Positions 7,114-38,024 of a stretch of DNA of 64,000 nucleotides are shown piece by piece. The notes beneath the pieces are model-generated. The model saw only the letters and a list, made by a program, of their open reading frames with translations, had not been told where the DNA came from and did not search any database. Positions within the stretch are counted from its first letter, which is position 1, and every line of letters starts with the position of its first letter. Origin of the DNA: Agathobacter sp. (lineage in GTDB: Bacteria > Bacillota > Clostridia > Lachnospirales > Lachnospiraceae). The translations under genes were made by a program, and so were the position numbers. Location of the stretch: positions 23,384 to 87,383 of the forward strand of contig JALFLB010000011.1 of assembly GCA_022775045.1 (NCBI GenBank). Direction: 5' to 3'.

Positions 7114-7120
7114 GGAAAGG

Positions 7121-11214: not shown

Positions 11215-11971
11215 AGGTAATATTCATTCTGTGGAGAGCTTTGGTTCTGCTGACGGACCGGGCGTACGCTATATTGTATTCTTAAAGGGATGCAATATGC
11301 GCTGTCGGTACTGCCATAACCCGGATACCTGGGCAAAGGAGGGCGGCGAGCAGCTCACTCCGGAAGAGACACTGAAAAAAGCGCTCCGCTACAGGAATTA
11401 TTGGAAGAATAACGGCGGAATTACAGTGAGCGGTGGGGAAGCCCTGTTGCAGATTGATTTTGTGACCGAGCTGTTTCGCCTCGCAAAGGAAAAGGGCGTT
11501 CATACTTGTCTGGATACTTCGGGCAATCCTTTTACCAGAGAGGAGGCGTTTTATTCCAAATTTGAGGAACTGATGCAGGTGACGGATCTTTTTCTGCTGG
11601 ATATCAAGCATATTGATGATGACATGCATCGGAAACTGACGGGACAGACCAATGTGAATATTCTCGATATGGCACGCTGCCTGTCTGACTATGGAAAGGC
11701 AATGTGGATCCGGCATGTTCTCGTGCCTGGGTTTACCGATGATGAAGACCAGCTTCGCCGTTTGAGATCATTTATTGATACTTTGAAGACGGTCGAGCGT
11801 GTCGAAGTGCTTCCGTATCATACTCTGGGGGTATTCAAGTGGAAGGAACTGGGGATCCCATATACATTGGAAGAAGTGCAGCCTCCATCGGCTGAACAGA
11901 TTCGCAGAGCGAAAGAGCTGCTTGGTATCACTCATATAGGATCGTATCCAGGGCAGATGCAATATAATTAA
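11201..11971 (+). CDS. pflA: Pyruvate formate-lyase activating enzyme (radical SAM)
   Basis: [26 protein letters not shown] and [11 protein letters not shown]; the start overlaps the pflB end. Confidence 0.96.
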
Positions 11972-12030
11972 GGCAGAGTTTCGCAATTAGTTACCAAAAT
12001 ATATTGACGAGAAAAGAGGAGAACGGTATC

Positions 12031-12738: not shown

Positions 12739-12745
12739 AAATGAC

Positions 12746-12782
12746 GCCAAACCTTGACAAGATTGTGGGTTTGGCATACTAT
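12746..12782 (+). promoter_or_regulatory. SigA promoter of proS with an inverted repeat flanking the -35
   Basis: TTGACA (12754-12759), 17 bp, TACTAT (12777-12782); GCCAAACC (12746-12753) and GGTTTGGC (12768-12775). Confidence 0.6.
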
Positions 12783-12854
12783 ATATTCGAGGATTTTCGC
12801 GATGCTATATGAATAAACAATAGCTGGACGAAAGCAGGAGAAAAGGAGAAAAAT

Positions 12855-14294
12855 ATGGCCAAGGAGAAAAAACTTGTTGAAGCCATTACTTCCATGGAGG
12901 AAGATTTTGCACAATGGTATACGGATGTTGTAAAAAAGGCAGAACTGATTGATTATTCAGCAGTGAAGGGATGTATGATCATCAAGCCTGACGGGTATGC
13001 CATTTGGGAAAATATACAGCATGAATTGGACCGCAGATTTAAGGAGACCGGTGTAGAGAATGTCTATATGCCGATGTTTATTCCGGAAAGCCTTCTGGAG
13101 AAGGAGAAGGATCATGTGGAGGGCTTTGCACCGGAGGTCGCATGGGTGACTTACGGCGGGCTCAATCCTCTTCAGGAGAGATTGTGTGTCAGACCGACTT
13201 CAGAGACACTTTTCTGCGATTTTTATAAGAATCTGATTCAGTCTTATCGGGATCTGCCTAAGGTTTATAATCAGTGGTGTTCTGTTGTCAGATGGGAGAA
13301 AGAGACCCGTCCGTTCCTGCGTTCGAGAGAGTTTTTGTGGCAGGAGGGACATACCGCTCACGCAACTGCCGAGGAAGCGGAGGAACGTACCGTACAGATG
13401 CTGAATCTATACGCAGACTTTTGTGAGGATTTTCTTGCAATGCCTGTTATCAAAGGAAGAAAGACTGATAAGGAAAAATTTGCCGGTGCGGAAGCTACTT
13501 ACACAATTGAAGCTTTGATGCATGATGGTAAGGCTTTGCAATCCGGAACCAGCCACAATTTTGGAGATGGATTTGCAAAGGCGTTTGGTATTCAGTACAC
13601 GGATAAGGAAAATAAGCTTCAATATGTTTATCAGACCTCATGGGGTGTGACAACCCGTTTGATCGGTGCGATTATTATGGTGCATGGAGATGATTCCGGT
13701 CTGGTACTGCCACCTAAGGTTGCTCCGACACAGGTGATGGTGATTCCAATCCAGATGCAGAAAGAGGGCGTTCTGGATAAAGCGAGTGAAGTGAGAGAGA
13801 GACTTGGCAAAGTATGCCGTGCGAAGATGGATGACTCGGATAAGAGTCCGGGATGGAAATTCTCTGAGCAGGAGATGAGGGGAATTCCGCTTCGCGTGGA
13901 GCTGGGACCAAAGGATATCGCAGAGAATAAGTGTGTTGTCGTCCGCAGAGATACCAGAGAGAAGATTGAGGTTTCTCTGGATGAGCTGGAAAGCAGGATT
14001 CCGGAGATTCTGGGTACGATGCAGAAGGAAATGTTCGAACGGGCAAAGGCACACCGGGATGCTCATATTTGGGATGCTCACGACTATGCAGAGTTCCGTG
14101 AGATTGCAGAGAATAAGCCTGGATTTATCCGGGCAATGTGGTGTGGAGAGCAGGCGTGTGAGGATAAAATTAAAGAGGATTTGTCGGTGACTTCACGTTG
14201 TTTGCCATTTCATGATCAGGAACAGATTTCAGATGTATGTGTCTGTTGTGGGAAGCCGGCACACAAATTAGTATATTGGGGGAAAGCATACTAA
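12855..14294 (+). CDS. proS: Proline--tRNA ligase (archaeal/eukaryotic type)
   Basis: [36 protein letters not shown] and C-terminal Zn-binding CVCCG. Confidence 0.97.
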
Positions 14295-14343
14295 TCAGGA
14301 GCGGTGTTCATAAAGATTGTGGACGAAGCAGGGGGGATAGGCC

Positions 14344-17300
14344 ATGATTGATAAGTATTATAATGGAGTCATAGACCAGGTATACAGCCGGATTGGAAAG
14401 GCAGAACGAAACATTGTTATGGCAAGCTATAACAATGATTTCTGTCTTGCTGATCTGGAAAATATCAAACGTTATCAGCAACAGGAGGATAACGTTTTTT
14501 TTGCTTGGCATGAGTTTGGGTATGGGGCTATTGCAGGGGCATACGAGCCTTTTCTGGATACAGTGTGCAATATGTATCATAAGTACAGGAAGGAGAATTT
14601 TGAGGATTTTCTTTCGGAGTGCAATGTCTATCAACTTCATCGACAGGTGTTGCTCAGCTATTATGAAAGTGGCTGCTGTTGCAGGGATGAGAGTGTGTTG
14701 TTGAATGAGGTAGAATATGAACAGCATCGTATGACGGAGGCAATTGCAAGAATGCTCACGTTGTTGGCTGATGAGCATCCGCTTGTGATCGTGATCAATC
14801 GTTTTCAACTGGCAAGCCGCAGTACAATGGAGCTAGTCTGTCGGTTGCTTTCGAATCCATCAAAAAATATCGGACTGGTGCTTGGTGTTAATGAGATGCA
14901 GCCACGGAGGGAGTCTGCTTCTGAGGTATGGAACTGTATTCTTGAACGGCTGGAGGATAACAGTCAGATTTATCATATCGGCAGTTCCGGCAAGCGCAGG
15001 GCACAGGATAATCTTGCAGAGCTGGATGAAGATTATTTTACAAGTGAAAGTTATGTCAAGACATTTGTCAAGCTGGAAAAGATTGCTGCTTTTTTGGATT
15101 ATGATGAGGTGGAAGGTTATTGCCAGGATATTGAGCATAAGATTAAGTTTGAGGATACGCCAATGGAAGAGAGAATTAAGAGGGATTTTTATCTTCTGTA
15201 TGCGCAGGCATCCATTTTGCTTGGGGAACTTCCCAAGGCGTTGGAACTGATTGCGGAAGTACAGCGTATGAATCTTCCGGATGAGAAGCATTTCTATCGT
15301 TTGCAGTGTGCCTTTTTGAAAGCAACTTGTCTGATGTATCAGGGAAAACTGGACAAGGCAGAGAAGTATGCGCGTATTGCGAGCAGCGAGGCGGAAGCGA
15401 ATGGGGACGAGAAAGAGATCTTTCGGGCAGAGCTTCTTGCTGTGGTGGCCCGGATGTCCGGCTGGTATAATATCTTTTTTTGTGTGCAGGATATTCCGAT
15501 TGCCGAAAGTCTTGTGGAAAAACTGATGAAGTATAACTACAAGAATCATCTGGCACATATTTATATTTATGCATATGATAACCGTCCTGAGGTTGTGGCG
15601 AAGTCCTATCGTTCGGAGGCTGCGCTGTTCTATTTCAGCAAAGGTGTTGAGATGGCGAAGGAAATCGGTAATGAGCAGCTGGTTCGCGATGCATATCAGA
15701 AGAATATTATGCTTGCCTCCACGAATGGAATGAATGAGATTGCGCTGCTGTATTCTACACGTTCTTACCAGTTTATGAAAGCGAAAACAGGAATCGATGC
15801 GGCGAGAATTATTTCGGGAATCGGGTATAATCTGAGTGCACTTGGGAAGCATTTAGAAGCAGAGGCCTGTTATAATCGATGCATTGAAATGATTTATCCA
15901 TTGCGGGCGCCGGAGGATATAGCGGAGGTATATTATAATCGTGCATTAAACTATATTGCTCTGGAAAAGTATGCTCTGGCAGAGCATGATCTTCAGATTG
16001 CGATGAAGGCAATTGAAAAGCTGCATTTGAATAGTCTTCGTGTATGTAATCTTTCAAAATTATATGGTCTGCTTGCACTCTCCTGCATTTTGCAGAAAGA
16101 TCGGTTTAATTGTGAACGGTATCTGTTGAGCTGTCGTCAGTTTTTAAATTATATTATTGAAAAAGAACTGGGGAATCAGAACGCGGAGGTCATCCATGAT
16201 TATGCCAAGTGTGATGATGATATGTTTCTCTACACGTTTTCACTTGCACTTCTGAACAGGATGGATGGCGACGATGAAGAGGCATTGGCAAATTTTGAGA
16301 AAGCAGAAAAACTCCTTCTGCAGGCAGAGGGAAATCAATACTACAGTTATCGCATTTTCAGGCAGGAGAGGATGAAACTGTTTCAGAAGCTTGGCAAAAT
16401 GGAACGCTATGAGAGAGAGAAGGTATTGCTGGACCAGCATGAAGAGATGAATCGCCAATTTGCGCAGACACAGCCGAATGAGATCCTGAAGGAGGCTGAA
16501 GTTGAGGTCGCTTTTGGTGAATGCAGGATTTCAGACGAGGAAATTGAGGCTTTGATCAAACAGGAGGGTGTGGCAAAGGATTATGCAAACTCCAAGCATC
16601 AGATGGAGTTTATCTCAACATGGCAGAAATTGATCGATGTCAGTGATATGAATATTATCGATATGGTGGAGAACGCCATTCGAACCTTCAGCAATCATTT
16701 CAGTCTGGACTGTACTTTGTACATCTGCTTCAATGATAATACCCCGCATGTGCTTTACGATGATACAGGGCGGGAAATGACGGATGAGGTGTTGCGTGGA
16801 ATCCAGAATGCCATGAAAGAATATCCGCAGGGATTTGCAGTGTCAAAAATCAGTGACAGCTTTTTGGAACATCAGAGTGTGATTTCCTTTTTTGGGACGG
16901 ATGATGTTTGTTCCTTTGTTGCGGTTCCATTCATCAAGAACAGCAAGATGACAAGCTTGCTGATTACTTATGTGCGGATGAAGGATAATTGGCACGGCTC
17001 GATTGAACGTTATATGCTGAATGAAGACGACTTGAGCATTTACAGGCTTCTGTTCCGCGAGATGGAGTATTCCATTAACCGTATGGAGGCAAATCAGAAG
17101 GTTTATATAGCAAACAGACAGCTTCAGGCGGCTGCTGTGACGGATATGCTGACGGGAATTTATAATCGTGCCGGAATGTATGAGGAGGTCCATCAGATGG
17201 CGGAGCGAATCAGTGCTTCCGGTAAGCCGCAGAAGACAGGACTGATGTTCATTGATTTGGATAATTTTAAGCATTATAACGATACCTATGGGCATGAGGT

Positions 17301-17670
17301 GGGAGATATCATTCTTAAGGAGATGGCATCAATTTTTGAACATGTATCTTCTGAAAAAGGGTTTGTAAGCCGTTTTGGCGGGGATGAGTTTATCATTATT
17401 CTCAATACAGATGACAAAGCAGAACTGGAAGCGATTGCCAGGGAAATTTATCGGAATATTGAGGAAACAAATGGCTTCAAGGATGAAATTGAGAAGTATA
17501 TGGGACATCCGGTGGAGATGGATGAGAGCCGGTTGGTTACCTGTTCAATCGGAATTGCACGAGCAGGGGATGTCAGAGTTGAGGAGGATATTAATCGGTT
17601 GATCCGCAAGGCGGATGATATGCTTTATACAGTAAAGACAGGACAAAAGGGACATTACGCTTTCTTATGA
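14344..17670 (+). CDS. Large diguanylate cyclase: degenerate ATPase-like N-terminus, TPR-like helical repeats, GAF-like region, GGDEF domain
   Basis: C-terminal TDMLTGIYNR, FIDLDNFKHYNDTYGHEVGD, SRFGGDEF and RKADDMLY; helical repeats in the middle. Confidence 0.85.
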   Translation: MIDKYYNGVIDQVYSRIGKAERNIVMASYNNDFCLADLENIKRYQQQEDNVFFAWHEFGYGAIAGAYEPFLDTVCNMYHKYRKENFEDFLSECNVYQLHRQVLLSYYESGCCCRDESVLLNEVEYEQHRMTEAIARMLTLLADEHPLVIVINRFQLASRSTMELVCRLLSNPSKNIGLVLGVNEMQPRRESASEVWNCILERLEDNSQIYHIGSSGKRRAQDNLAELDEDYFTSESYVKTFVKLEKIAAFLDYDEVEGYCQDIEHKIKFEDTPMEERIKRDFYLLYAQASILLGELPKALELIAEVQRMNLPDEKHFYRLQCAFLKATCLMYQGKLDKAEKYARIASSEAEANGDEKEIFRAELLAVVARMSGWYNIFFCVQDIPIAESLVEKLMKYNYKNHLAHIYIYAYDNRPEVVAKSYRSEAALFYFSKGVEMAKEIGNEQLVRDAYQKNIMLASTNGMNEIALLYSTRSYQFMKAKTGIDAARIISGIGYNLSALGKHLEAEACYNRCIEMIYPLRAPEDIAEVYYNRALNYIALEKYALAEHDLQIAMKAIEKLHLNSLRVCNLSKLYGLLALSCILQKDRFNCERYLLSCRQFLNYIIEKELGNQNAEVIHDYAKCDDDMFLYTFSLALLNRMDGDDEEALANFEKAEKLLLQAEGNQYYSYRIFRQERMKLFQKLGKMERYEREKVLLDQHEEMNRQFAQTQPNEILKEAEVEVAFGECRISDEEIEALIKQEGVAKDYANSKHQMEFISTWQKLIDVSDMNIIDMVENAIRTFSNHFSLDCTLYICFNDNTPHVLYDDTGREMTDEVLRGIQNAMKEYPQGFAVSKISDSFLEHQSVISFFGTDDVCSFVAVPFIKNSKMTSLLITYVRMKDNWHGSIERYMLNEDDLSIYRLLFREMEYSINRMEANQKVYIANRQLQAAAVTDMLTGIYNRAGMYEEVHQMAERISASGKPQKTGLMFIDLDNFKHYNDTYGHEVGDIILKEMASIFEHVSSEKGFVSRFGGDEFIIILNTDDKAELEAIAREIYRNIEETNGFKDEIEKYMGHPVEMDESRLVTCSIGIARAGDVRVEEDINRLIRKADDMLYTVKTGQKGHYAFL

Positions 17671-22013: not shown

Positions 22014-22078
22014 CATAAAAAGTACATCTCCTCATATAGTAAATATATAAAATATTACAGGGAGGAGAAGGAATCATG
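22014..22078 (+). promoter_or_regulatory. SigE-type promoter plus anti-RBS of yabP
   Basis: ATA (22015-22017), 15 bp, CATATAGT (22033-22040). TCTCCTC (22027-22033) is the exact reverse complement of RBS GAGGAGA (22062-22068). Confidence 0.65.
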
Positions 22079-22357
22079 GAAGAAAAAAAGGTGACGGGAA
22101 CGCATAAGCTGATGCTGAAGGACCGGAAAAACGGGAGCTTTACGGGGGTATTGGATGTACTTTCGTTTGATTTGAATGAGATTTTGCTTGAGACAGAATG
22201 TGGAATGCTCCATCTGAAAGGAAAAGATCTTCATGTAAATCGGTTGGATCTTGAGAAGGGCGAGGTTGATATTGACGGACAGATTGATGCTCTGAATTAT
22301 TCACAGGTGCCGGGAATCGGGAAGAAGGGCAGCATGCTCGGAAAGCTGTTTAAGTAA
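22076..22357 (+). CDS. yabP: Sporulation protein YabP
   Basis: HKLMLKDRK...TGVLDVLSFD...GMLHLKGKDLHVNRLDLEKG; synteny. Confidence 0.92.
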   Translation: MEEKKVTGTHKLMLKDRKNGSFTGVLDVLSFDLNEILLETECGMLHLKGKDLHVNRLDLEKGEVDIDGQIDALNYSQVPGIGKKGSMLGKLFK

Positions 22358-22758
22358 TGCAGCCGGTTTCTGGACTTGAAATAGAACTGGCTTTGTTCTT
22401 GCGTTCTCTTTTGCTGGGAGCAGGTCTGTTGGCAGTTTATGATGGAATCCGGATTTTTCGTAGATTTTTTTCGCATGGAATGCTTTGGATTTCATTGGAG
22501 GATGCTGTGTATTGGACGGCGGCAGCAATCTTTTTTTTTCTTCAATTATGTGAGGTAAATAATGGAATCATAAGAGGATACATCTTACTTGGAATGGCAC
22601 TTGGCGCATGGATTTATTACTGTCTGCTGAGCAGGTTTGTGATGCGCAGACTGTCAAAAGTGATTATGCGTGCAAAAAAGCGATTGAAAAAAGTGAGGAA
22701 AGCGGCTACAATAAAAATAAGTAAATGGAAAAAGTCAGGAAGGACGGAGGAAAACTAA
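22357..22758 (+). CDS. yabQ: Spore cortex protein YabQ
   Basis: Hydrophobic protein with YDGIRIFRR...EDAVYW...NNGIIRGY and a basic tail; follows yabP. Confidence 0.88.
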   Translation: MQPVSGLEIELALFLRSLLLGAGLLAVYDGIRIFRRFFSHGMLWISLEDAVYWTAAAIFFFLQLCEVNNGIIRGYILLGMALGAWIYYCLLSRFVMRRLSKVIMRAKKRLKKVRKAATIKISKWKKSGRTEEN

Positions 22759-23231: not shown

Positions 23232-25127
23232 ATGAGTACAAAAAGGAAACAAAGACAGAGTCTGAGATGGCCGGAGGTGTTGGGGAGACTGGTTTACGGT
23301 TTACTCGGTGCGTTGAGCAGTATGCTGTGCATTATGGGATATTATCCGCTTGTTCCGGCATTTTATGCAGGCTGTTGTTTCGACCAGAGAAAAAATTATT
23401 TACTGTACATAGGATTGTTTACAGGGATGGGGTTTTGCATGCCGGTTGGAGCAATGGTAAAATATTTATTTGTGCTGCTGGTGACGGGGATTGCCATTCA
23501 TTTTTACAGATGGGCAAATCGTCGCTGCAGTGGGGTGACCGCCGGTTTGATTTCAGGTCTGGCTACCGCTGCAATGAATTGTTCTGGTGCTGTGTTTTAT
23601 GCGATGGACCGTAAGGAATTTGTTTTGGGAATTTCGGAAGGAGTATGCGTGTTTGGTGCTGCAGTATTGTTTCATTATGTATCCCAGATGAGTTATGAAT
23701 TGGGACAGACGATACTGCAAAGCCCCAAAGATGATGATCAGGGTCAGCAGCAGACCGCGCTTGATGAAGCGCAGGGGCGGATTCATGCCTTTGCAGAGGC
23801 TGTCGATGGACTTTCGGTAGCTTTTGCAGCTATGGGAAGCCGGTCAGAATTTTCGGGTCATGAAAGCGTGACAGTCCTTGAACAGGAAATTACTGGAAAA
23901 TTGTGTGGCGCTTGTGATGCCTGTGCAGTTTGCTGGAATGATAAAACGGATTTGTCTGCAAAAATACGTAGAATGTTGCAGGCGGTGGTGGCTCATAATC
24001 CGAAGGAAGAAATATTGGATCAAAATTATATGGAAGAATGTCCGCGCTATCCGGGGATGGTGGAGGAAGCAATCTGGGCTTTTTCACGGATGGAATTAAA
24101 TGAAGCCTGGTACCGGCGGTTGCAGGAGAATCGAATGGTGATTGCGGGCCAGCTGGATGCGATGGCAGATGCCCTGCAGGATTGGAACAGGGATAAGAAA
24201 AATGTGGACGCAAAGTCAAAGCTGCTACTGGCGAGGGTAGGATTTGAGGCGTTGGAACGTGGGTTGGTTGCAGAAAATGTGCATATTTATGAGGATGACC
24301 ATGGACGGCGCAGCATCAGCGCAATGGTCAGCAGTAAGTGGGGGGGAGGAATTCCCAGCAAAAATTACAGGAAAGCACTGGAACGTGCTACAGGTCTTGC
24401 GCTACGTTTACAGAAGGATGCGAGAGCTATTCTTACGCAGGATGCGGTGCCGATTACAGCATATGAAGATACTTGCTATTATGCGCTTTCAGGGGTCGCA
24501 GCGGAGGCCAAGGATGGTGCGAGCATGAATGGGGATAATTTTTCCCTGTTTACTTCTGAGAACGGAAGATATCACATTTGTCTTTCTGACGGAATGGGGA
24601 GTGGACCGGCCGCCAGTAAGGAGAGTGATATGGTCGTAGATCTGATGGAAAAATTTATGGAGGCAGGGTTTCCCCGTGATACAGCGATTCATATCATGAA
24701 TTCTGCAATGGTTCTGAAGGGAGAAAATGATACGTATTCTACTCTTGATTTTGCGGTGGTTGATCTTTACACGGGGGAACTTGAACTAACCAAAATTGGT
24801 GCAGCTGCGTCCTTTATCCGCCATCGTCAGGAGGTGCGCTATATCCCCGGGGGGTCACTTCCGACCGGAGCAGAAGCAACGAAAGTGGACGAGCCGGTAT
24901 GTACCCGACTGACAAATGGCGATTTCCTTGTCATGGTAACGGATGGTGTGTTAGAATATTTGCATGTGAAAAATCCGGAGGAAAAGCTTTCGGAAATGAT
25001 CAGTGAGATAAAGACAGAGAATGCCGGAGTATTGGCGCGTCAGTTGATGGAACGTGTTATGCTTTTTACAGGAGGTCATGCATTGGATGACATGACGATT
25101 GTTGTTACCGGCATCTGGGAGAAATAA
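23232..25127 (+). CDS. spoIIE: Stage II sporulation protein E (PP2C phosphatase)
   Basis: N-terminal TM helices, CGACDAC...C Zn motif, NGDN, LSDGMGSG, TDGV and DDMT. Confidence 0.9.
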   Translation: MSTKRKQRQSLRWPEVLGRLVYGLLGALSSMLCIMGYYPLVPAFYAGCCFDQRKNYLLYIGLFTGMGFCMPVGAMVKYLFVLLVTGIAIHFYRWANRRCSGVTAGLISGLATAAMNCSGAVFYAMDRKEFVLGISEGVCVFGAAVLFHYVSQMSYELGQTILQSPKDDDQGQQQTALDEAQGRIHAFAEAVDGLSVAFAAMGSRSEFSGHESVTVLEQEITGKLCGACDACAVCWNDKTDLSAKIRRMLQAVVAHNPKEEILDQNYMEECPRYPGMVEEAIWAFSRMELNEAWYRRLQENRMVIAGQLDAMADALQDWNRDKKNVDAKSKLLLARVGFEALERGLVAENVHIYEDDHGRRSISAMVSSKWGGGIPSKNYRKALERATGLALRLQKDARAILTQDAVPITAYEDTCYYALSGVAAEAKDGASMNGDNFSLFTSENGRYHICLSDGMGSGPAASKESDMVVDLMEKFMEAGFPRDTAIHIMNSAMVLKGENDTYSTLDFAVVDLYTGELELTKIGAAASFIRHRQEVRYIPGGSLPTGAEATKVDEPVCTRLTNGDFLVMVTDGVLEYLHVKNPEEKLSEMISEIKTENAGVLARQLMERVMLFTGGHALDDMTIVVTGIWEK

Positions 25128-26593
25128 TGATTGAACGGGTTAGATCCTATATAGAACAATGGAATATGATTATGCCGGGAACACGAGTAGTTGCCGGGGT
25201 TTCGGGAGGCGCGGATTCGGTTTGTCTGTGTCTTTTACTGAAACAGTTATCCGAAGAAATGAATTTTACGCTGGAAGTGATTCATGTGGAGCATGGAATT
25301 CGCGGAGAGGACAGTAGGAAGGATGAGCAGTTTGTACAAAGATTGTGTACAGGACTGGGGATATTGTGCCATGTAGAAGTAGTGGATGTGCCTGCCTATG
25401 CGACCCAACACCATATGGGATTGGAGGAGGCGGCACGGATTCTGCGTTACCGTGTCTTTGCAGGATATGCTGCAAACGTGCCGGAATGCAGGATTGCACT
25501 TGCACATCATATGGAGGATAATGCGGAAACGATTTTGTTGCAGATGATTCGGGGGAGCGGACTTGATGGACTCTGCGGAATGCGGCCGCTGCGGCGAGGA
25601 ACGAACGGGGAATGTTACATCCGGCCTCTGCTGGAGTGCAGCAGAAGTGAGATTGAGGAGTTTTTGCAGAGCAGGGGGCAGGCGTACTGTAGTGATATCA
25701 CGAACGAGGATCTTTCCTACAGCCGTAACCGGGTACGCCATAAGGTGATGCCGGAGCTTTCGGACATTAACGCACAGGCGGTTATCCATATCAATCAGGC
25801 GGCGGAGTTTCTGGGAGAACTTCGGGATTATCTGGATGAACTTACGGATACGGTGATGTTGCGTACTGTAAAAACGAAGGAAGACGGGGTGGCTCTTGAT
25901 GTGAACAGTCTTGAAAATATGCCGCAGGTTCTTAGAATGCGTGTGATACAAAGAGCGGCGGCGCAAGCTGCCGGTGCCAAAAAGGACTGGACAAGAGCGC
26001 ATCTGGAAGCAATTGCATCGCTCCTTACAAAGCAGACGGGGCGCCGGGTGGATCTTCCCTATGAACTGACTGCAAAACGTGCATATCGGGAGATACTTTT
26101 ATACAGGAAGGAAAAGGATGTTTCGCAGAAAGCGCGGATGGAGATTTCTTCGAAACAGCTGCATGATTTATGCTGCTCAGGAAAAAAACACACACTGGTG
26201 ACGGAAGTGCAGGGAAGTCGTTTTACACTTCGCGTATTTCCGTTTCACGGGAAAATAAGTGAAATTCCACGAAAAATGTATACGAAATGGTTTGATTATG
26301 ATAAGATAAAAAATGGTTTTTCTATCAGGAATCGTGAGCCGCAGGATTTTTTCGTGTTTGATGTTGCAGGACATCACAAAAAGCTTGGCGACTATTTTAT
26401 TACAGAAAAAATTCCTTCGGAAGAGAGAGAAAGGTGCCTGCTGATTACTCAGGGTGCACAAGTGCTTTGGATTGTTGGTGGACGCATGGGGTGTACGGCA
26501 TTGGTGGAGAACACTACACGACTGATTCTTGAAATTGCCGTAGACACGGTTACATCAGAGATTATAGAAGGAGGAACAAATGATGGATTATAG
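25127..26593 (+). CDS. tilS: tRNA(Ile)-lysidine synthetase
   Basis: VSGGADS, AHHMEDNAET, IRPLL and NLSYSRNRVRH-like motif. Confidence 0.95.
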   Translation: MIERVRSYIEQWNMIMPGTRVVAGVSGGADSVCLCLLLKQLSEEMNFTLEVIHVEHGIRGEDSRKDEQFVQRLCTGLGILCHVEVVDVPAYATQHHMGLEEAARILRYRVFAGYAANVPECRIALAHHMEDNAETILLQMIRGSGLDGLCGMRPLRRGTNGECYIRPLLECSRSEIEEFLQSRGQAYCSDITNEDLSYSRNRVRHKVMPELSDINAQAVIHINQAAEFLGELRDYLDELTDTVMLRTVKTKEDGVALDVNSLENMPQVLRMRVIQRAAAQAAGAKKDWTRAHLEAIASLLTKQTGRRVDLPYELTAKRAYREILLYRKEKDVSQKARMEISSKQLHDLCCSGKKHTLVTEVQGSRFTLRVFPFHGKISEIPRKMYTKWFDYDKIKNGFSIRNREPQDFFVFDVAGHHKKLGDYFITEKIPSEERERCLLITQGAQVLWIVGGRMGCTALVENTTRLILEIAVDTVTSEIIEGGTNDGL

Positions 26594-27125
26594 TAAGCAA
26601 CATGAGATATCCGTCTATCTTACCGAGGAACAGTTGAATCAAAGAATTGCAGAGATTGGTGCACAGATTACGCAGCGCTTTGCCGGGGAATCTGTGTATC
26701 TGGTATGCATTTTGAAAGGCTCCGTCTTCTTTACGACAGAGCTGGCAAAGCGAATTGCGCTGCCGATGACGATTGATTTTATGTCTGTTTCAAGTTATGG
26801 TGCACAGACACATTCATCTGGAGTTGTCAATGTAAAAAAAGATCTGGAGCATTCTATTGAAGGAGAGAATGTGATCGTTGTTGAGGATATTGTTGATTCA
26901 GGACATACATTAAGTCGCTTGATGCAGCTTTTTGAGAGCCGTAAGCCTAAAACACTTACGATTTGTACACTTCTGGATAAACCGGACCGGCGTGTAGTGA
27001 AAGATCTGCATGTGGACTATACGGGATTTGTGATTCCAGATAAATTTGTTGTGGGATTTGGTCTGGATTATGATCAGAGATATCGTAATCTTCCATATAT
27101 TGGCTTTGTGGAAGATGCTGAGTAA
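26580..27125 (+). CDS. hpt: Hypoxanthine phosphoribosyltransferase
   Basis: ILKGS, DFMSVSSYG, VVEDIVDSGHTL and FVVGFGLDY. Confidence 0.96.
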   Translation: MMDYSKQHEISVYLTEEQLNQRIAEIGAQITQRFAGESVYLVCILKGSVFFTTELAKRIALPMTIDFMSVSSYGAQTHSSGVVNVKKDLEHSIEGENVIVVEDIVDSGHTLSRLMQLFESRKPKTLTICTLLDKPDRRVVKDLHVDYTGFVIPDKFVVGFGLDYDQRYRNLPYIGFVEDAE

Positions 27126-27140
27126 GAAAAGGAGAACACT

Positions 27141-28994
27141 GTGAATACAAAGAATAAAAGTGGATTTCGGGGATTTGGCATTTATGCGATGCTGATTTTG
27201 CTTGTGGTTTTGATCTGGTATTGGCTTAGTGGTAATACGACGACAAGCAGTTATACTAGAGCAGATTTTGAAAAGGCCCTTGGAAAGGGGGCGGTTGCGT
27301 CGGTCGAAGTAGTACAGAATCGTGAGATTCCGACTGGAAGTCTTCGGCTTAAGCTTAAGGATGGGACGCAGTCAGTGCTTTACACATCAGATGTCAATGA
27401 GATGCAGCAGTTGATGAACAACTATCAGTTTACTAACTATACACTTGCGGATGTACCGGCAGAGAGCTGGATCATGACGCTGTTGCCGTATTTGTTGATT
27501 TTTGGAGCTCTTTTTATACTGTTTATCATTTTGAATAATAATGCTGCAGCCAACAATAGCGGTGGAAAAATGATGAACTTCGGGAAGAGCCGTGCAAAGC
27601 TTTCGACGGAAGAAGATAATCATATGACTTTTGCCAATGTGGCAGGCCTTCGTGAGGAGAAGGAAGAGCTGGAGGAACTGGTGGATTTTTTACGGGAACC
27701 GAAAAAATACACGAAGCTTGGAGCCCGCATTCCGAAGGGAGTATTGCTCGTCGGACCTCCGGGAACCGGTAAGACATTGCTTGCCAAGGCCGTTGCAGGC
27801 GAGGCAGGGGTTCCGTTTTTCAGTATCTCAGGATCTGATTTTGTGGAGATGTTTGTGGGTGTCGGTGCATCACGTGTACGTGACCTGTTTGAGGATGCTA
27901 AGAAAAATGCTCCATGTATTGTGTTTATCGATGAGATTGATGCGGTGGCACGAAGAAGAGGAACTGGAATGGGCGGCGGGCATGATGAGCGTGAGCAGAC
28001 TTTAAATCAGATGCTTGTGGAGATGGACGGTTTTGGTGTCAATGAAGGAATTATCGTGATGGCAGCAACGAACCGCGTAGATATTCTCGATCCGGCAATC
28101 ATGCGCCCTGGTCGTTTTGACCGTAAGATTGTAGTTGGAAGACCTGATGTGGCTGGAAGAGAGGAGATTCTTGGAGTCCATGCGAAAAATAAGCCGCTTG
28201 GTGATGATGTAGATTTAAAACAGGTGGCACAGACGACAGCGGGCTTTACCGGAGCGGATTTGGAGAATCTGTTAAATGAGGCGGCAATCCTTGCAGCCAG
28301 AGAAGATCGTGCGTTTGTTGTTCAGGCGGATATTCAGAAGGCATTTATCAAGGTGGGAATCGGCGCGGAGAAGCGCAGCCGTATTATTTCTGAAAAAGAA
28401 AAGAAAATTACCGCTTATCACGAGGCCGGACATGCGATTCTGTTTCATGTACTTCCGGATGTGGGACCGGTGCATACGGTGTCTATTATTCCAACCGGAG
28501 CAGGAGCTGCCGGCTATACAATGCCGTTGCCGGAAAAGGATGAAATGTTCAATTCCAAGGGGCGTATGAAGCAGGAAATTATTGTGGATCTGGGAGGCCG
28601 TGTGGCAGAAGAGATTGTCTTTGATGATATTACAACCGGCGCATCGCAGGATATCAAGCAGGCAACGCAAATGGCACGTGACATGGTGACGCGGTACGGC
28701 ATGTCCGAGAATATTGGTCTCATTTGCTACAAAGAAGATGATGATGAAGTGTTTATCGGTCGTGATCTTGCGCATGCTCATAATTATAGTGAAGGTATCG
28801 CATCCGCTATTGATGCGGAAGTAAAGCATATCATTGATGAGGCATATGCGCAGGCTAAGAGGATCATTGAGGAGAATCGTGACATTCTGGAACGTTGTGC
28901 AAATCTCCTTTTGGAGAAAGAAAAAATCACCCGCGAAGAGTTCGAGGCCTTGTTTGCCGATAGAATGGAATCAGAAGTTGTGCAGAATATCTAA
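27141..28994 (+). CDS. ftsH: ATP-dependent zinc metalloprotease FtsH
   Basis: [21 protein letters not shown] and zinc motif HEAGH; GTG start. Confidence 0.97.
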
Positions 28995-29060
28995 AAAGAA
29001 ATTGAAACTTTTGTGAACTTTGTGCACACTTATCTTGTAAACCATGCTATTATAATAACC

Positions 29061-29155
29061 GTAAAAACCCCCCAATACATTATATATAGTTTTTACTATA
29101 CCCCATAGTAAAAATACCTTCTCCTAAAAAGACAGCGATCGTAGCTGTCTTTTTT
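29061..29155 (+). ncRNA. Candidate sibling small RNA, copy 1
   Basis: Own -10, CCCCCC tract, TTTTTACTAT-ACCCC-ATAGTAAAAA hairpin, CCTTCTCCT and terminator; no + strand ATG. Confidence 0.75.
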
Positions 29156-29272
29156 ACTGTTTTATAATGAAATGGGGAATTGTTTGCGATTATACAAAAT
29201 GTACAAAAAACACATCAAAATTTTGTTGGATTTGTTCACACTTATATACGGAACCGTGTTATTATAATAGCT

Positions 29273-29366
29273 GTAAAACCCCCCAATACATTATATATAG
29301 TTTTTACTATACCCCATAGTAAAAATACCTTCTCCTAAAAAGGCAGCGATCGTAGCTGTCTTTTTT
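29273..29366 (+). ncRNA. Candidate sibling small RNA, copy 2
   Basis: Same core as copy 1; an A>G change in the terminator stem keeps pairing as G.U. Confidence 0.75.
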
Positions 29367-29479
29367 ATTTTTGATGAAGTGGGAAATTATCTGAGATAGT
29401 GCAGATCGCACAAAAAACATATTGAAATTTTGTCAAGTTTGTTCACACTTATATACGGAACCGTGCTATTATAATAGCT

Positions 29480-29574
29480 GTAAAAACCCCCCAATACATT
29501 ATATATAGTTTTTACTATACCCCATAGTAAAAATACCTTCTCCTAAAAAGACAGCAATCGTAGCTGTCTTTTTT
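29480..29574 (+). ncRNA. Candidate sibling small RNA, copy 3
   Basis: Same core as copy 1; the single change lies in the terminator loop. Confidence 0.75.
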
Positions 29575-29692
29575 ACTATGCAAAAATGGAGAAAAAGAGA
29601 TAAATGAGAGGATTATGGATTTTCAAAAATCTGCTTGTCAACGGGAATAGATTATGATATAATTCAACACTGTCAGAGTGATTTGACAAAAT

Positions 29693-29774
29693 GGGCAGAT
29701 TCCCGAGTGGCCAAAGGGGGCAGACTGTAAATCTGCTGCAAATTGCTTCGGTGGTTCGAATCCACCTCTGCCCA
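29693..29774 (+). tRNA. tRNA-Tyr (GTA), CCA not encoded
   Basis: Acceptor GGGCAGA/TCTGCCC, anticodon GTA at 29727-29729, long variable arm and GGTTCGAAT T-loop. Promoter TTGTCA-17-TATAAT at 29635-29663. Confidence 0.96.
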
Positions 29775-29776
29775 TG

Positions 29777-29818
29777 AAAACTGCCGCACGAATGAGTCAT
29801 CATTCGTGCGGCAGTTTT
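29777..29818. terminator. Bidirectional terminator between tRNA-Tyr and the lacI-family gene
   Basis: 19-bp perfect inverted repeat with A/T runs at both ends. Confidence 0.9.
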
Positions 29819-29829
29819 GCGTCTACTGT

Positions 29830-30828
29830 TTATTTATTGCGAACACGCGTGGTTGATTCACGCTCTACAAGTTTTGGACGCAATAGAGTTTTGCTGATTG
29901 AGATGTGGTGAATGAGCGAGTTGAGAATCACATAGGCACATTTGCCGATCTCATTGCGTTCCTGGCGGATTGTAGTAAGGGGCGGATCAAAAGTAGCTGC
30001 AACGGAAATGTCATCAAATCCAATTACGCTGATATCTTCCGGAATCTGAAATCCTCTCTGGATACATTCTTCCATGACTCCTTTTGCAATTAAATCATTG
30101 CCACACACGATGGCTGTTGCTCCGGCAGCAAGAAAACCCGGAACATGGTACTTGGCACTGTCCGATACATAGTAGCCATATGCCATGAGATCGCTGCGAA
30201 TCGGTAGACCAACGGCGGTCATTGCATTTTCGAACGCCTCCTGGCGCTGATCAGATACCATTGAGTATAAAGAGCCGTTGAGAAAGGCAATATTTTTGTG
30301 CCCTAATGTATAAAGATGGTTGACAGCCATGGAAATTCCTTCGTAACTGTCGGTTCCGATATAACAGACGTTCGGATTGCTGTCAATGTAGTTGTCTAAA
30401 AGGACAGTTGGCATAGTGGTGTCCTCTAATTGCTTCATCCAGGCATCGTGTAATGCAAAACCCATGAGAAAGGCACCGCAGTAACCGTTTTTGAGCAAAT
30501 AGGTGTCATATTTTTCTTCTTCCTGGAAAGCAGGCGTGATGGGCACAATGTCTACATCCCATTTATGACGGAAAGCATTCTGCTTGAAGCCCAGCACGAT
30601 TTCATAGCCAAATTCGTCAATGGAATCGTAGTTCATATTTTCAATAAAGATACATAACTTGCGATTTTCTTCTTTTTTGGAACGCTTAGTTGCATAACCC
30701 ATTTCTACAGCAGTGTCCAAAACCATCTGCCGTAATTCTTCGCTAATGTCACTTGCACCATTCAGACCCTTGGAGACTGTGCTGACAGAAACTCCGAGGC
30801 GGTTGGCGATATCTTTAATCGTAGCCAT
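29830..30828 (-). CDS. LacI-family transcriptional regulator (probable maltodextrin-locus repressor)
   Basis: MATIKDIANRLGVSVSTVSKGL helix-turn-helix and VIGFDD...PPLTTIRQ; divergent from malQ. Confidence 0.93.
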   Translation of the reverse strand: MATIKDIANRLGVSVSTVSKGLNGASDISEELRQMVLDTAVEMGYATKRSKKEENRKLCIFIENMNYDSIDEFGYEIVLGFKQNAFRHKWDVDIVPITPAFQEEEKYDTYLLKNGYCGAFLMGFALHDAWMKQLEDTTMPTVLLDNYIDSNPNVCYIGTDSYEGISMAVNHLYTLGHKNIAFLNGSLYSMVSDQRQEAFENAMTAVGLPIRSDLMAYGYYVSDSAKYHVPGFLAAGATAIVCGNDLIAKGVMEECIQRGFQIPEDISVIGFDDISVAATFDPPLTTIRQERNEIGKCAYVILNSLIHHISISKTLLRPKLVERESTTRVRNK

Positions 30829-30999
30829 AAAAAATCTCCCTTCTATGTATAATAATTATAAAATAATTCAGAATACTCTGCAATTGTTTCAGGGAAAATA
30901 TTTTCGAAAAAAGAGCACAATACTGTTGTGAATATATACAAAAATATAAACTAAAATCCGTGAAAAATGGAAAAAATGAGCTTGCAACCCCAAAAAACA

Positions 31000-31061
31000 T
31001 TGACAAAACGACTTGTAGAGACTAGAATTATCCTAGATACGAAAAAACACGAAAATTTTCG
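31000..31061 (+). promoter_or_regulatory. SigA promoter of malQ with a downstream palindromic operator candidate
   Basis: TTGACA (31000-31005), 17 bp, TAGAAT (31023-31028). CGAAAATTTTCG at 31050-31061; related GAAAATATTTTCG at 30894-30906. Confidence 0.6.
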
Positions 31062-31142
31062 AAAGCCAAGCAGACAGATTTGGCATTTGGGAGAATTCTT
31101 TGTGGAGACAGGGTGGGAAGAAATTTGGAAGAACAGGAAGTG

Positions 31143-32621
31143 ATGAGAGGGTCTGGAGTCCTTCTTGCGGTATCAAGCCTTCCGTCTGAATACGGGATTG
31201 GTACGATGGGGGATGCGGCTTTTCGATTTGTTGATCTTCTGGTTGACTTAAAACAAAAGTACTGGCAGATACTTCCCATTGGACCGACAAGTTTTGGCGA
31301 TAGTCCGTATCAGGCAATGTCGGCATTCGCAGGGAATCCTTATCTGATTGATTTGGATGAACTTGTCAGACAGGGCTTGCTGACAAGGGAAGAGATTCGA
31401 TGTTATAATTGGGGAAATGATGAGTCTACAATTGATTACGCTGCACTTTTTGAAAACCGTTACCGTATACTGAAACAGGCATTCGAACGGTTTGACCAGC
31501 GGGATTCACAATTTATAAAGTTTGAAGATGAAAATGCGGATTGGGTTGAAGATTATGGACTGTTCATGGCACTGAAGGAGCTCTTTGGATTTGTCAGCTG
31601 GCAGGAGTGGCCGGAAGAAATTAAAAATAAACAACCGGTTGCGCTTGCAAAATACCGAAAAGAGTTGTATAATAACATCAGGTTTTGGGTGTTTTGCCAA
31701 TATAAATTCTATGAGCAATGGACAAAACTCAAAGAATATGCCAATTTCAGAGGAATCCAACTGATTGGAGATGTTTCGTTTTTTGTTGGGATGGACAGTG
31801 TGGATGTCTGGGTACATCCGGAACAGTTTCTGGTTGATGAAAACGGGGAAGCTGTTTATGTGGCTGCCGCTGGTCCTGACAAGTTTTCGCACACCGGTCA
31901 GGTATGGGGAAATCCGCTGTACAATTGGAAGAACATGGAAGAGGATGGGTTCTTATGGTGGAAACACAGAATGAGTATCAGCAGCCAGTTATTTGATGTG
32001 ATACGAATTGATCATTTTGCGGGATTCGCCAAGACATATATGGTTCCGAAGAATTCACCGGACGCCTCAGGAGGCAGATGGATGAAGGGACCGGGAAGAA
32101 AGCTGATAGATGCGCTCAACCCGGTACTGCAAGGGAAGACAGTGATTGCTGATGACTATGGCGGCAAGGCATTGGTCCCGGGAACAAAAAAACTGTTACA
32201 TAAAGCGGGGTGGCTGGGGACAAAGGTTTTGATGTTTGCGTTTGATGGAGATCCGGCGAATGAACATCTTCCACACAATTATCCGGATGGCCACTGGGTT
32301 GTATATGCAGGAACGCATGATAACGATACGATTGTTGGATATTTCAGAGGTAAGACCGAATATGAGCTGGCCTACCTGTATGAATATCTGAATATAGAAA
32401 AGCAGGATGAGATTCCGGATGCACTGATCCGGTGTGCCTATGCAAGTGTTGCAGATATTGCAATTATCCAGATGCAGGATTTATTGAAGCTGGGGAATGA
32501 GGCGAGAATGAACAAGCCTGCTACGGTCGGTGCCAATTGGCGCTGGCGTTTTGGCAAAGAACAGCTTACGGAGAACCGCAGGGCATGGATTCGCAATCTG
32601 GCGGCGGTGTATCGTAGATAA
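31143..32621 (+). CDS. malQ: 4-alpha-glucanotransferase (GH77)
   Basis: RGSGVLLAVSSLPS, SPYQAMSAFAGNP, WGNPLY, RIDHF and GTHDNDT. Confidence 0.94.
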   Translation: MRGSGVLLAVSSLPSEYGIGTMGDAAFRFVDLLVDLKQKYWQILPIGPTSFGDSPYQAMSAFAGNPYLIDLDELVRQGLLTREEIRCYNWGNDESTIDYAALFENRYRILKQAFERFDQRDSQFIKFEDENADWVEDYGLFMALKELFGFVSWQEWPEEIKNKQPVALAKYRKELYNNIRFWVFCQYKFYEQWTKLKEYANFRGIQLIGDVSFFVGMDSVDVWVHPEQFLVDENGEAVYVAAAGPDKFSHTGQVWGNPLYNWKNMEEDGFLWWKHRMSISSQLFDVIRIDHFAGFAKTYMVPKNSPDASGGRWMKGPGRKLIDALNPVLQGKTVIADDYGGKALVPGTKKLLHKAGWLGTKVLMFAFDGDPANEHLPHNYPDGHWVVYAGTHDNDTIVGYFRGKTEYELAYLYEYLNIEKQDEIPDALIRCAYASVADIAIIQMQDLLKLGNEARMNKPATVGANWRWRFGKEQLTENRRAWIRNLAAVYRR

Positions 32622-36440: not shown

Positions 36441-38024
36441 ATGAAGAAGAGAGTATTATCAGTACTGCTTGTGCTGTCGATGTGCTTTGCCCTGTTTGAG
36501 GGCTGCGTGGAGAGAAAACCGGAACTTTCCATTGTTGAGGATAATTACCGTAACTATTATGAAATTTTTGTCGGCTCCTTTTATGACAGTGATGGAGACG
36601 GTATGGGAGATCTCAATGGGGTGACCAGGAAATTGGATTATATACAGGAGATGGGATTTAACGGAATCTGGCTGATGCCGATCATGCCATCGCCGACATA
36701 CCATAAATATGATGTAACAGATTATATGGATGTGGATCCGGCTTATGGAACCGTTGACGATTTTAAAACACTTATGGAAGAATGCCATAAAAGAGATATC
36801 CGGTTGATTATTGATATGGTGATGAATCACTCTTCCTCTTCACATCCGTGGTTTACGGAGGCGTGCACATATTTGCGGAATCTGCCGGAAGGACAGGAAG
36901 CAGATGAATCAGAGTGTCCATATGTAGGATATTATCATTTTTCACAGGAAAAAGTAGATTCCACTTATTATGCAGTCCGGGGAACGAACTGGTGGTATGA
37001 GGGCTCTTTCTGGTCGGAAATGCCGGATCTTAATTTGAATAATGCCGCACTTCGCGAGGAATTTCAACAGATTGCAGATTTCTGGCTCGATCTTGGTGTG
37101 GATGGATTTCGAATGGATGCGGCTATGCACTATGAGGAAAACGATATAGCAGGAAATAATCAGGACCTGAATTGGATTTATAATTACTGCAAAGAGCAGA
37201 ACCCGGACTTTTATATGGTGTCCGAGGTATGGGCAAATGAACAGACAATTGCAGATTACTATGGAAGCGGCACACCGAGTATGTTTAATTTTGATGCGGG
37301 AAGTGCGGAAGGTAAAATCATTCAGGCAGCCCGAAGCGGGAAGGTTACCTCTCTGGTACAGGCGATGCTTACTTATCAGGAAGATTTTTCCAAAGAAAAT
37401 CCGGAATATATTGATGCTCCATTTTTGACAAACCATGATATGGGACGTGTTGCAAACGCACTGATGAGCGATGAAGATAAGCTCAAGATGGCAGCAGGAC
37501 TGCTTATGATGATGAATGGAAGTCCGTTTGTATATTACGGAGAAGAAATTGGTATGAAGAGTGCCGGAACGAAGGACGAAAATAAGCGGATTCCGATGTT
37601 CTGGTCGGCGACAGATAGTACAGGAATGACCGATGGACCGCAGGGGATGGATGCGGGAATTGAATCTTCCCTACCCCCGTTGGATGAGCAGATGAAGGAT
37701 GAAACTTCTCTGTTGAACTATTACAAGAGAGCGCTTCGCCTTCGTAATGAAAATCCGGAGATCGCAAGAGGTACAGTTCAGGCAATTGACAGTTTGTGTG
37801 TAGGCTCGATGGCGGCAATTACAAAGAGCTACAATGGAAGCACGATTGGAATTATTTATAATATAGGTGAAGAAGAGACTACATTTTCACTGGATCAGAC
37901 GGAACTTTCCGGGATGAAAATCCAGGGATATCTTACACTGAATAACGAAAAAGTGGTGCTTTCTGATGACGAATTAATTATGCCTGCACGCAGTATCTGT
38001 ATTGTAAAATCTGTCAAAAAATAA
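36441..38024 (+). CDS. GH13 alpha-amylase-family lipoprotein
   Basis: Lipobox-like FEGC, DSDGDGMGDLNG, DMVMNHSS, DGFRMDAA and FLTNHD. Confidence 0.9.
   Translation: MKKRVLSVLLVLSMCFALFEGCVERKPELSIVEDNYRNYYEIFVGSFYDSDGDGMGDLNGVTRKLDYIQEMGFNGIWLMPIMPSPTYHKYDVTDYMDVDPAYGTVDDFKTLMEECHKRDIRLIIDMVMNHSSSSHPWFTEACTYLRNLPEGQEADESECPYVGYYHFSQEKVDSTYYAVRGTNWWYEGSFWSEMPDLNLNNAALREEFQQIADFWLDLGVDGFRMDAAMHYEENDIAGNNQDLNWIYNYCKEQNPDFYMVSEVWANEQTIADYYGSGTPSMFNFDAGSAEGKIIQAARSGKVTSLVQAMLTYQEDFSKENPEYIDAPFLTNHDMGRVANALMSDEDKLKMAAGLLMMMNGSPFVYYGEEIGMKSAGTKDENKRIPMFWSATDSTGMTDGPQGMDAGIESSLPPLDEQMKDETSLLNYYKRALRLRNENPEIARGTVQAIDSLCVGSMAAITKSYNGSTIGIIYNIGEEETTFSLDQTELSGMKIQGYLTLNNEKVVLSDDELIMPARSICIVKSVKK

Follow-up and report, generated by a model that had tools for sequence, protein, structure and literature searches.

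What three near-identical units of ~210 bp encode, placed one behind another between ftsH and a tRNA-Tyr gene, is the question raised by a 64,000-nucleotide stretch of Agathobacter sp. DNA (contig JALFLB010000011.1; the whole stretch is hereafter the window, and positions are counted from its first letter). A first-pass annotation had read the units as sibling small-RNA (sRNA) genes. Our analysis supports the reading of each unit as an independent gene for a predicted ~94-nt RNA, since >200 homologous loci share the promoter architecture and the terminator, the stem of which covaries. The RNA is Lachnospiraceae-wide, normally single-copy, and not peculiar to this genome. The best reading of its affiliation, by comparison with characterized RNAs, is that of a new, apparently undescribed family of the known C-rich anti-Shine-Dalgarno (anti-SD) class, which is a functional class and not a homology family. 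As to its action, we lean by analogy toward a trans-acting RNA that would silence mRNAs by pairing with their ribosome-binding sites (RBSs).

The array, its promoters and the predicted RNAs

The three direct units (region 28996-29600) are spaced 211 and 208 bp apart, start to start. With the upstream elements of copy 1 included, the array extends from ~29009, where the first box begins, to ~29577; this is a minor correction to the originally annotated extent of 29011-29574, which was essentially right. In alignment the units are near-invariant from the TGnTATTATAAT element through the terminator, with diverged spacers, as had been proposed, and a 25-nt core, ACCCCATAGTAAAAATACCTTCTCC, occurs three times with 0 mismatches (chance expectation, 0.00). 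Sequence, fold, and terminator scan bear out, for each unit, the annotated succession of upstream box, TG-extended -10, RNA body (~94 nt, annotated as ~95), and intrinsic terminator, while Pfam domains and a tRNA at the expected place confirm the flanking genes. The features are listed here by copy, followed by the two flanks.

29009..29033, + strand: upstream box of copy 1, TTTTGTGAAC-TTTGTGCACACTTAT (consensus over 116 homologous promoters)
29019-29031, + strand: proximal near-invariant element of copy 1, TTTGTGCACACTT, overlapping the -35 position
29045..29056, + strand: TG-extended -10 of copy 1 (TG-c-TATTAT, overlapping TATAAT), without a TTGACA-like -35
29060-29063, + strand: inferred start of the copy 1 sRNA
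29062..29155, + strand: predicted sRNA of copy 1, ~94 nt (covariance model, 102.6 bits, E 3.7e-19; fold; terminator scan)
29068-29073, + strand: CCCCCC tract of copy 1
29089-29115, + strand: hairpin of copy 1, with its ACCCC loop at 29100-29104
29117-29125, + strand: CCUUCUCCU linker of copy 1
29126-29154, + strand: terminator of copy 1, followed by a U-tract
29200..29210, + strand: distal inverted element of copy 2, TGTACAAAAAA (family consensus TGCACAAAAA, from the box-anchored consensus)
29221..29245, + strand: upstream box of copy 2, TTTTGTTGGA-TTTGTTCACACTTAT (unit alignment; family consensus)
29257..29268, + strand: TG-extended -10 of copy 2, TG-t-TATTATAAT (sequence, unit alignment)
29273..29366, + strand: predicted sRNA of copy 2 (covariance model, 100.5 bits; fold z-score -5.35)
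29408..29417, + strand: distal inverted element of copy 3, CGCACAAAAA (sequence, family consensus)
29428..29452, + strand: upstream box of copy 3, TTTTGTCAAG-TTTGTTCACACTTAT (unit alignment; family consensus)
29464..29475, + strand: TG-extended -10 of copy 3, TG-c-TATTATAAT (sequence, unit alignment)
29481..29574, + strand: predicted sRNA of copy 3 (covariance model, 102.3 bits; fold z-score -7.75)
27141..28994, + strand: ftsH, the conserved upstream anchor gene, given as context and not part of the RNA (Pfam Peptidase_M41, AAA, FtsH_ext)
29692-29775: tRNA-Tyr, the downstream flank of the array

Differences among the transcribed parts are few. Copy 2 has an A>G change at 29343 that creates a G.U pair in the terminator stem, and copy 3 a G>A change at 29556 in the terminator loop, both as annotated; the A-run of copy 2 is also 1 nt shorter than in its siblings. 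Direct reading of the sequence confirms that the transcribed + strand of the units contains no ATG, and neither a transposase nor terminal inverted repeats are associated with the units.

Box-anchored comparison of 116 upstream regions yields the promoter consensus TGCACAAAAA-N11-aaaTTTTGTnAAg-TTTGTGcACACTTaT-N10-aTGnTAttaTAat-aa.cGTA, in which the spacing from box to -10 is fixed and aTGnTAttaTAat is conserved family-wide. The proximal box TTTGTGCACACTT is matched at ≥12/13 positions in 101 of 123 promoters and is flanked upstream by a TTTTGTnAAg repeat. Within the box lies an 8-bp palindrome, TGTGCACA, the left half of which is repeated in inverted orientation ~30 bp upstream. The consensus has no TTGACA-like -35, which is why a simple sigma-70 scan misses these promoters; transcription would proceed from a promoter of sigma-A type whose -10 is TG-extended and in which the TTTGTGCACACTT box takes the place of a -35 hexamer. 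A search for further occurrences of the box, as potential regulon members, found none elsewhere at ≤1 mismatch in ~1 Mb (window plus loci). Because the box is near-invariant and found only at these promoters in the sequence sampled, it suggests the predicted site of a dedicated regulator of these extended -10 promoters. This putative transcription factor, whether activator or repressor, would bind there and decide when the RNA is made. The box was compared with what we take to be the sites of Rex, CRP/FNR, ResD, Spo0A, WalR, and the sporulation sigma factors, with no convincing fit; it resembles the presumed Rex operator, but the spacing does not fit.

That the trio could be an artefact of assembly, a possibility raised with the original annotation, is ruled out by independent DNA metagenomes, since these recover the junctions at single-copy depth. 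In all four pig-gut DNA runs (X1, X2, X3, X6), exact unitigs cover the junctions from ftsH into copy 1, from copy 1 through the spacer into copy 2, and from copy 3 into the tRNA region. The junction from copy 2 through the spacer into copy 3 was recovered in three of the four (X6 has zero depth over 29378-29445), and throughout these runs the depth of the junction unitigs equals that of the single-copy flanks. All four also contain a variant contig in which a copy-2-like terminator is joined directly to the tRNA-Tyr region (29371 to 29689), with 317 bp missing in between. Copy number is therefore polymorphic, with two units in place of three in related strains or populations.

Each window copy folds into two 11-bp stems, a hairpin with an ACCCC loop and the terminator (z-scores, -5.4 to -7.8), with the CCCCCC tract and the inter-hairpin CCUUCUCCU left unpaired. 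The first-pass annotation had the hairpin and its loop right; the length of 10 bp that it gave is replaced by the 11 bp obtained on folding. Family-wide there are three C-rich tracts, namely CCCCCC, ACCCCA, and CCUUCUCC, and per-sequence folds of 108 homologues put the 5' C-tract at 98.7% unpaired, the internal CCCC at 98.6%, and CCUUCUCC at 80%. The tracts stay single-stranded because the 5' two-thirds of the RNA is almost G-free: over the 5' 64 nt, G content is 3.1%, versus 26.9% for the window + strand, and the family mean is 6%.

Conservation, distribution and expression of the family

Homologues were collected with two patterns. The first, which required the three C-motifs, returned at least 120 loci from a species-representative genome collection and six true copies in IMG/VR contigs; the other, anchored on the promoter box and the AU-rich AAUACAUUAUA with no C-motif required, returned at least 120 further loci from metagenome contigs, and >200 homologous loci were obtained in total. 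Among 90 unique sequences from the C-motif-free search, a 5' C-run of ≥5 is present in 86, an internal CCCC in 86, and an exact CCUUCUCC in 82, the remainder having CU-rich variants. Conservation of the C-motifs is thus real and not circular, since they are retained in sequences found without requiring them.

A covariance model, R1, was built from 108 non-redundant homologues; the family is defined by the pattern 5'-(G)UAAAA-C5-7-AAUACAUUAUAUA...ACCCCAU...AAAUACCUUCUCC-terminator, preceded by TTTGTGCACACTT-N16-19-TAYTAT/TATAAT. R1 finds exactly three sites in the window, at 100-103 bits (E ~1e-19), and no others; on 100 genome loci it gives 103 hits of 60-113 bits and reveals one divergent extra copy (in L111). 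A pattern match in Sutcliffiella was rejected by R1 as a chance match, and some GC-rich pattern-match loci are chance matches too.

Approximately 60 nt of the RNA are nearly invariant across genera, AU-rich linkers such as AAUACAUUAUAUA included, and what is conserved family-wide is sequence and exposure, not fold. The terminator shows compensatory changes in 8 of 10 pairs and is the only structure that RNAalifold retains; a family-wide internal hairpin was accordingly rejected. The ACCCC-loop hairpin, annotated as part of the RNA core, therefore holds for the window copies but is specific to their subtype and not a family feature. Constrained folds of the homologues fall into three subtypes, with the C-tracts unpaired in all. 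The window subtype has a stable CCCC-loop hairpin (-6 to -8 kcal/mol), within which independent compensatory events are few: L028 and L111 have G-C swaps, and the two arms change length in step in L035/L075/L191 and L036/L190. The commonest subtype, with the 3' arm AUAAGAAGAAAU (Blautia and others), is almost without internal structure. The third (L017, L071, L090, L108) has an inserted arm that forms a hairpin, UAUAGnn-loop-nnCUAUA, just 5' of a single-stranded CCCC, as well as GNRA-like inserts. In many homologues (e.g., L031, L003, L087, L124) the terminator loop holds a fourth C-motif (ACCCC, UAUCCC, or CCCCC); the window copies have GAUCGUA or AAUCGUA there.

Among the matches listed, organism-titled genome loci are nearly all from Lachnospiraceae, with carriers in Blautia, Roseburia, Coprococcus, Butyrivibrio, Pseudobutyrivibrio, Fusicatenibacter, Agathobacter, Lachnospira, Enterocloster, Hungatella, Marvinbryantia, Oliverpabstia, and Hominisplanchenecus. 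A single copy is usual, and some strains have two or three; tandem arrays are rare (~10 of 218 loci), with trios in five, and the array in the window is the most compact. True copies also turned up under the labels Oscillospiraceae, Acutalibacteraceae, Paludibacteraceae, and Prevotella (L016, L035, L047, L125); these are probably mis-binned or loosely named contigs of metagenome-assembled genomes and not genuine carriers beyond Lachnospiraceae. Several viral-classified IMG/VR contigs likewise contain true copies (L003, L004, L011, L012), in L011 as a trio; these may be misclassified chromosomal fragments or prophage-adjacent regions.

The genomic position of the RNA gene is recurrent. In 86 of 120 loci it is directly preceded by a same-strand ftsH homologue, with hpt and tilS further upstream (58 loci each) and a GH13 alpha-amylase gene downstream on the same strand in 70; most genomes have a single copy directly 3' of tilS-hpt-ftsH. 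The window differs downstream of copy 1, where two more copies, tRNA-Tyr, a LacI-family gene, and malQ follow. Roseburia-type genomes provide a second recurrent site, ~100-800 bp downstream of mrnC (mini-RNase III), rlmB (SpoU methylase), and a sigH-like sigma-70-family gene (L040, L041, L067, L116).

Some further observations concern these surroundings. Downstream of the array lies an alpha-glucan utilization cluster with a LacI-family regulator (29830-30828, - strand), malQ (GH77; 31080-32621, + strand), and a secreted-type GH13 amylase (36441-38024, + strand); the recurring GH13 association is of note, yet no complementarity beyond that of control genes links GH13 genes to the RNA. Directly upstream of tRNA-Tyr is a strong sigma-70-type promoter, TTGTCA-17-TATAAT with TG (29635-29663, + strand), and since the tRNA gene has a promoter of its own, its transcription does not simply continue that of copy 3. 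On the minus strand, 29641-29612 resembles a promoter of near-consensus sequence in divergent orientation. The gene order yabP-yabQ ... tilS-hpt-ftsH (22076-22758 and 25127-28994, both + strand) presumably mirrors the corresponding region of the Bacillus subtilis chromosome, and from this retained synteny the organism is probably a spore-former.

The RNA is transcribed, and in a Roseburia-like isolate it is highly abundant. The RNA data used here are assembler contigs (Logan), which are strandless and carry no transcript ends. In RNA sequencing (RNA-seq) of the Roseburia-like isolate (X47), contigs confined to the RNA body reach k-mer depths of 3,400-17,600, or 25,000-31,000 when summed, compared with ~1,700 for an ftsH-side contig and 410 for a 4.1-kb flanking contig; coverage is also high on a 992-nt contig beyond the terminator. 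These Roseburia contigs break at repeats. For a Blautia isolate, ftsH, the RNA, and the gene that follows it share one unbroken 3.7-kb contig, and the core is present in pig-gut metatranscriptomes as well. The product is predicted to be a discrete transcript of ~95 nt.

Proposed action and its alternatives

In the model that we favor, transcription from the box-controlled promoter would end at the strong intrinsic terminator, and the G-poor 5' two-thirds of the product would hold CCCCCC, ACCCCA, and CCUUCUCC single-stranded. By analogy with LhrC, the csRNAs (Cia-dependent sRNAs of Streptococcus), RsaE/RoxS, and FsrA, these C-tracts would pair with several mRNAs over the G-rich SD and start codon, so that ribosomes could not bind and translation would be repressed. 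The three near-identical copies of the window might act additively and raise the dose, where most relatives manage with one. Consistent with this type of pairing, CAU-N10-CCUUCUCC is the exact antisense of AGGAGAAGG-N10-AUG, and CCUUCUCCU is complementary to the AGGAGAAGG-type RBSs of rsmH, yabP, and the secreted-type alpha-amylase in the window.

Several results weigh against this model. Within the 64-kb window, RNAduplex energies are equal for the real and the shuffled sRNA, and seed matches of ≥9 nt number 45 versus 42 expected, i.e., no excess over shuffles. Across 1.88 Mb of DNA, the only bipartite SD-plus-AUG target returned was the antisense of the sRNA itself, and the neighboring genes (GH13, ftsH, hpt, tilS) show no excess complementarity. 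Near-invariance over ~60 nt also exceeds the needs of a short seed and could point to a protein or ribosome partner. In addition, a 60-nt contig of X47, at a depth of ~17,600, spans from about -31 to +28 relative to the predicted start of one copy (L056:2837-2882), which implies that an upstream copy is read through heavily or that transcription starts further upstream than predicted.

The lack of a target signal in these searches would suit an RNA that titrates a protein or the ribosome, with C-/CU-rich tracts that bind a KH-domain protein (KhpA/KhpB) or Hfq, or that mimic the 16S anti-SD tail, as a sponge or decoy. The extreme sequence conservation, which takes in AU-rich linkers such as AAUACAUUAUAUA across genera, somewhat favors such a role; the motifs are moreover multiple, repeated, and always single-stranded, and the RNA is highly abundant in isolate RNA-seq. 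CsrA-type sponges, however, use GGA motifs, whereas this RNA is almost G-free, and the layout of motifs over loop, linker, and terminator loop matches that of base-pairing sRNAs such as LhrC, for which SD pairing has been shown (PMC4132741). RsaE, too, is highly conserved and yet acts by base pairing (PMC4152353). We regard titration as rather unlikely. A related proposal, which we advance as speculation and with low expectations, is that transcription factor and sRNA form a module that serves as a core regulator of the Lachnospiraceae, in which the 60-nt body would mimic a translation-initiation partner (as an anti-SD-like decoy or through protein binding) beyond short seeds. If true, such a module would give global, and not gene-specific, control of translation in dominant butyrate-producing gut bacteria.

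The remaining alternatives fare less well. A cis-acting element, either a leader or attenuator of the downstream gene (in most genomes the GH13 amylase) or a processed piece from the 3' end of an extended ftsH transcript, would account for the recurrence of ftsH upstream and of same-strand GH13 genes downstream, for the continuous Blautia contig, and for the coverage beyond the terminator in X47. We nonetheless consider it very unlikely, because downstream partners vary and because promoter and terminator are autonomous: the window units precede each other and tRNA-Tyr, not GH13, other copies sit after the sigH-like sigma gene or elsewhere, and every unit combines a conserved promoter with a strong terminator, for which no competing antiterminator pairing exists. 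Complementarity to GH13 initiation regions is also no greater than to those of control genes. A small-protein gene on either strand has still less to recommend it and is barely credible. The minus strand does offer an ATG plausibly spaced from an SD-like sequence and followed by seven codons (AGGAGAAGG-N10-ATG GGG TAT AGT AAA AAC TAT ATA TAA), but the + strand is without an ATG, and the minus-strand frame is broken by indels within the family (MGYSKNYI, MGCSKTI, and MGLVKII, each followed by a stop, and MGCSKKLYNVLGG...), with many versions open into the promoter. Minus-strand transcripts would in any case be terminated by the hairpin and T-run ahead of this open reading frame, no conserved minus-strand promoter is present, and the mini-frame was rejected as not conserved across the family. 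As for a non-functional repeat, or a duplication derived from a mobile element or from assembly, the tandem units and the copies on viral-classified contigs might suggest one, but this reading is effectively refuted and its likelihood is negligible: the terminator covaries, position is conserved across >200 loci and many genera, and three of the four junctions were recovered at single-copy depth in every DNA run and the copy 2 to copy 3 junction in three. Expression of the RNA, and the absence of any associated transposase or terminal inverted repeats, likewise speak against it.

Comparison with described RNA families

The model of a trans-acting, RBS-pairing RNA leads to the question of whether the family is already known under another name. 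In the whole window, Rfam 15 at gathering thresholds matched only a SAM (S-box) riboswitch (3452-3572, + strand; 63.5 bits, RF00162), a ZMP/ZTP (pfl) riboswitch (8794-8900, + strand; 52.1 bits, RF01750), and tRNA, leaving the array unmatched. A permissive scan of 28950-29700 (E ≤10) gave 18 hits, with all array matches sub-threshold; the best scores against the respective gathering values were 30.5/128 bits for SQ1002, 21.9/42 for PsrR1, and 21/57 for csRNA. Full-text literature searches (Lachnospiraceae sRNAs, sequence strings, Roseburia/Blautia sRNA work) returned neither a description of this RNA nor any characterized sRNA from Lachnospiraceae, and a Clostridioides difficile Hfq study contains nothing on C-rich seeds or SQ1002 (PMC8237595). 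The absence of an Rfam match at threshold, together with these searches, supports the initial impression that this is not a described clostridial family.

Assignment to the C-rich anti-SD class of Firmicutes sRNAs follows from the predicted promoter and predicted transcription start site that the RNA has for itself, together with its intrinsic terminator, and from several exposed C-rich motifs (80-99% unpaired in 108 homologues). UCCC or otherwise C-rich motifs in loops and single-stranded linkers bind the SD in LhrC, RsaE, RNAIII, SprD, and FsrA (PMC4132741). The best Rfam hit, SQ1002 of C. difficile (RF03533; 30.5 bits, E 1.3e-4 for copy 2, and another hit at 19.7 bits), shares a CCCC-loop hairpin, a short C-containing linker, and a terminator, which is generic 3' architecture only; the score lies far below the gathering value of 128, and 89 + 20 (~110) positions of the 237-nt model are skipped. 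SQ1002 itself is an abundant, sigma-A-driven clostridial sRNA of ~200 nt that adjoins feoA2 (PMC3649979).

The likeness to LhrC and the csRNAs that had been drawn at the outset is apt with respect to architecture. LhrC1-5 of Listeria monocytogenes (with siblings Rli22 and Rli33-1) are, like the units described here, multicopy sibling sRNAs of ~100 nt, partly in tandem. Their UCCC motifs, in a loop, a single-stranded linker, and the terminator loop, bind the lapB SD and block translation, and the copies share a LisR-responsive upstream element (PMC4132741), where ours share the upstream box. LhrC is defined by homology, three UCCC motifs, and a LisRK-dependent promoter (PMC4132741); here, homology and motifs are lacking and the resemblance is one of architecture only. 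No LhrC-type hit appeared even at E ≤10, and the motifs are CCCCCC, ACCCCA, and CCUUCUCC, not UCCC. Further differences from LhrC are the extra, long 5' single-stranded C-tract, the Lachnospiraceae/Clostridia host, and a different box that overlaps the -35.

The csRNAs (RF02379) also exist as several similar copies, of 87-151 nt, with a response-regulator repeat instead of a -35, and they carry anti-SD and anti-AUG sequences between two stem-loops and act additively (PMC4152353). Anti-SD and anti-AUG sequences are likewise present in our RNA, in which CAU-N10-CCUUCUCC is antisense to SD-N10-AUG. The csRNA model, however, scores 21 bits against a gathering value of 57 (E 3.8), and our RNA, though similar in plan, is not a member. 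The upstream repeat is TTTTGTnAAg/TTTGTGCACACTT and not the CiaR repeat, which is TTTAAG-N5-TTTAAG; unlike the csRNAs, the family has a variable 5' stem-loop or none, and usually a single copy per genome.

RsaE/RoxS of the Bacillales (RF01820) resembles the family in its size of ~100 nt, in its very high conservation across an order or family, and in several CCCC motifs, which in RsaE/RoxS pair with the SD of many metabolic mRNAs (PMC4152353). Of the RNAs compared, it probably comes closest in function, judged by breadth of conservation. RsaE/RoxS gave no Rfam hit at E ≤10, and motif context, taxon, and genomic location differ, the RsaE context being ACCCCUUUGUUU. A link to redox or nitric oxide regulators (Rex, ResD/SrrA), as for RsaE/RoxS, is unsupported here.

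Lachnospiraceae, which produce butyrate and convert bile acids, rank with the most abundant gut bacteria and with those most relevant to health. Because it is near-invariant across genera, fixed in chromosomal position, abundant in Roseburia-like RNA-seq, and endowed with a well-defined promoter, the RNA makes a strong candidate, and a first one, for a regulator at the core of post-transcriptional control in this family. Carriers are already in culture (Blautia, Roseburia, Coprococcus catus, Enterocloster), a covariance model is at hand, the promoter motif could be used to find the regulator, and natural variation in copy number amounts to a dosage experiment. The RNA would not be a categorically new kind of regulator but a valuable and readily tested way into RNA-based regulation in this major lineage of the gut, with a role that could compare with that of RsaE/RoxS in Bacillales or of the csRNAs in streptococci.

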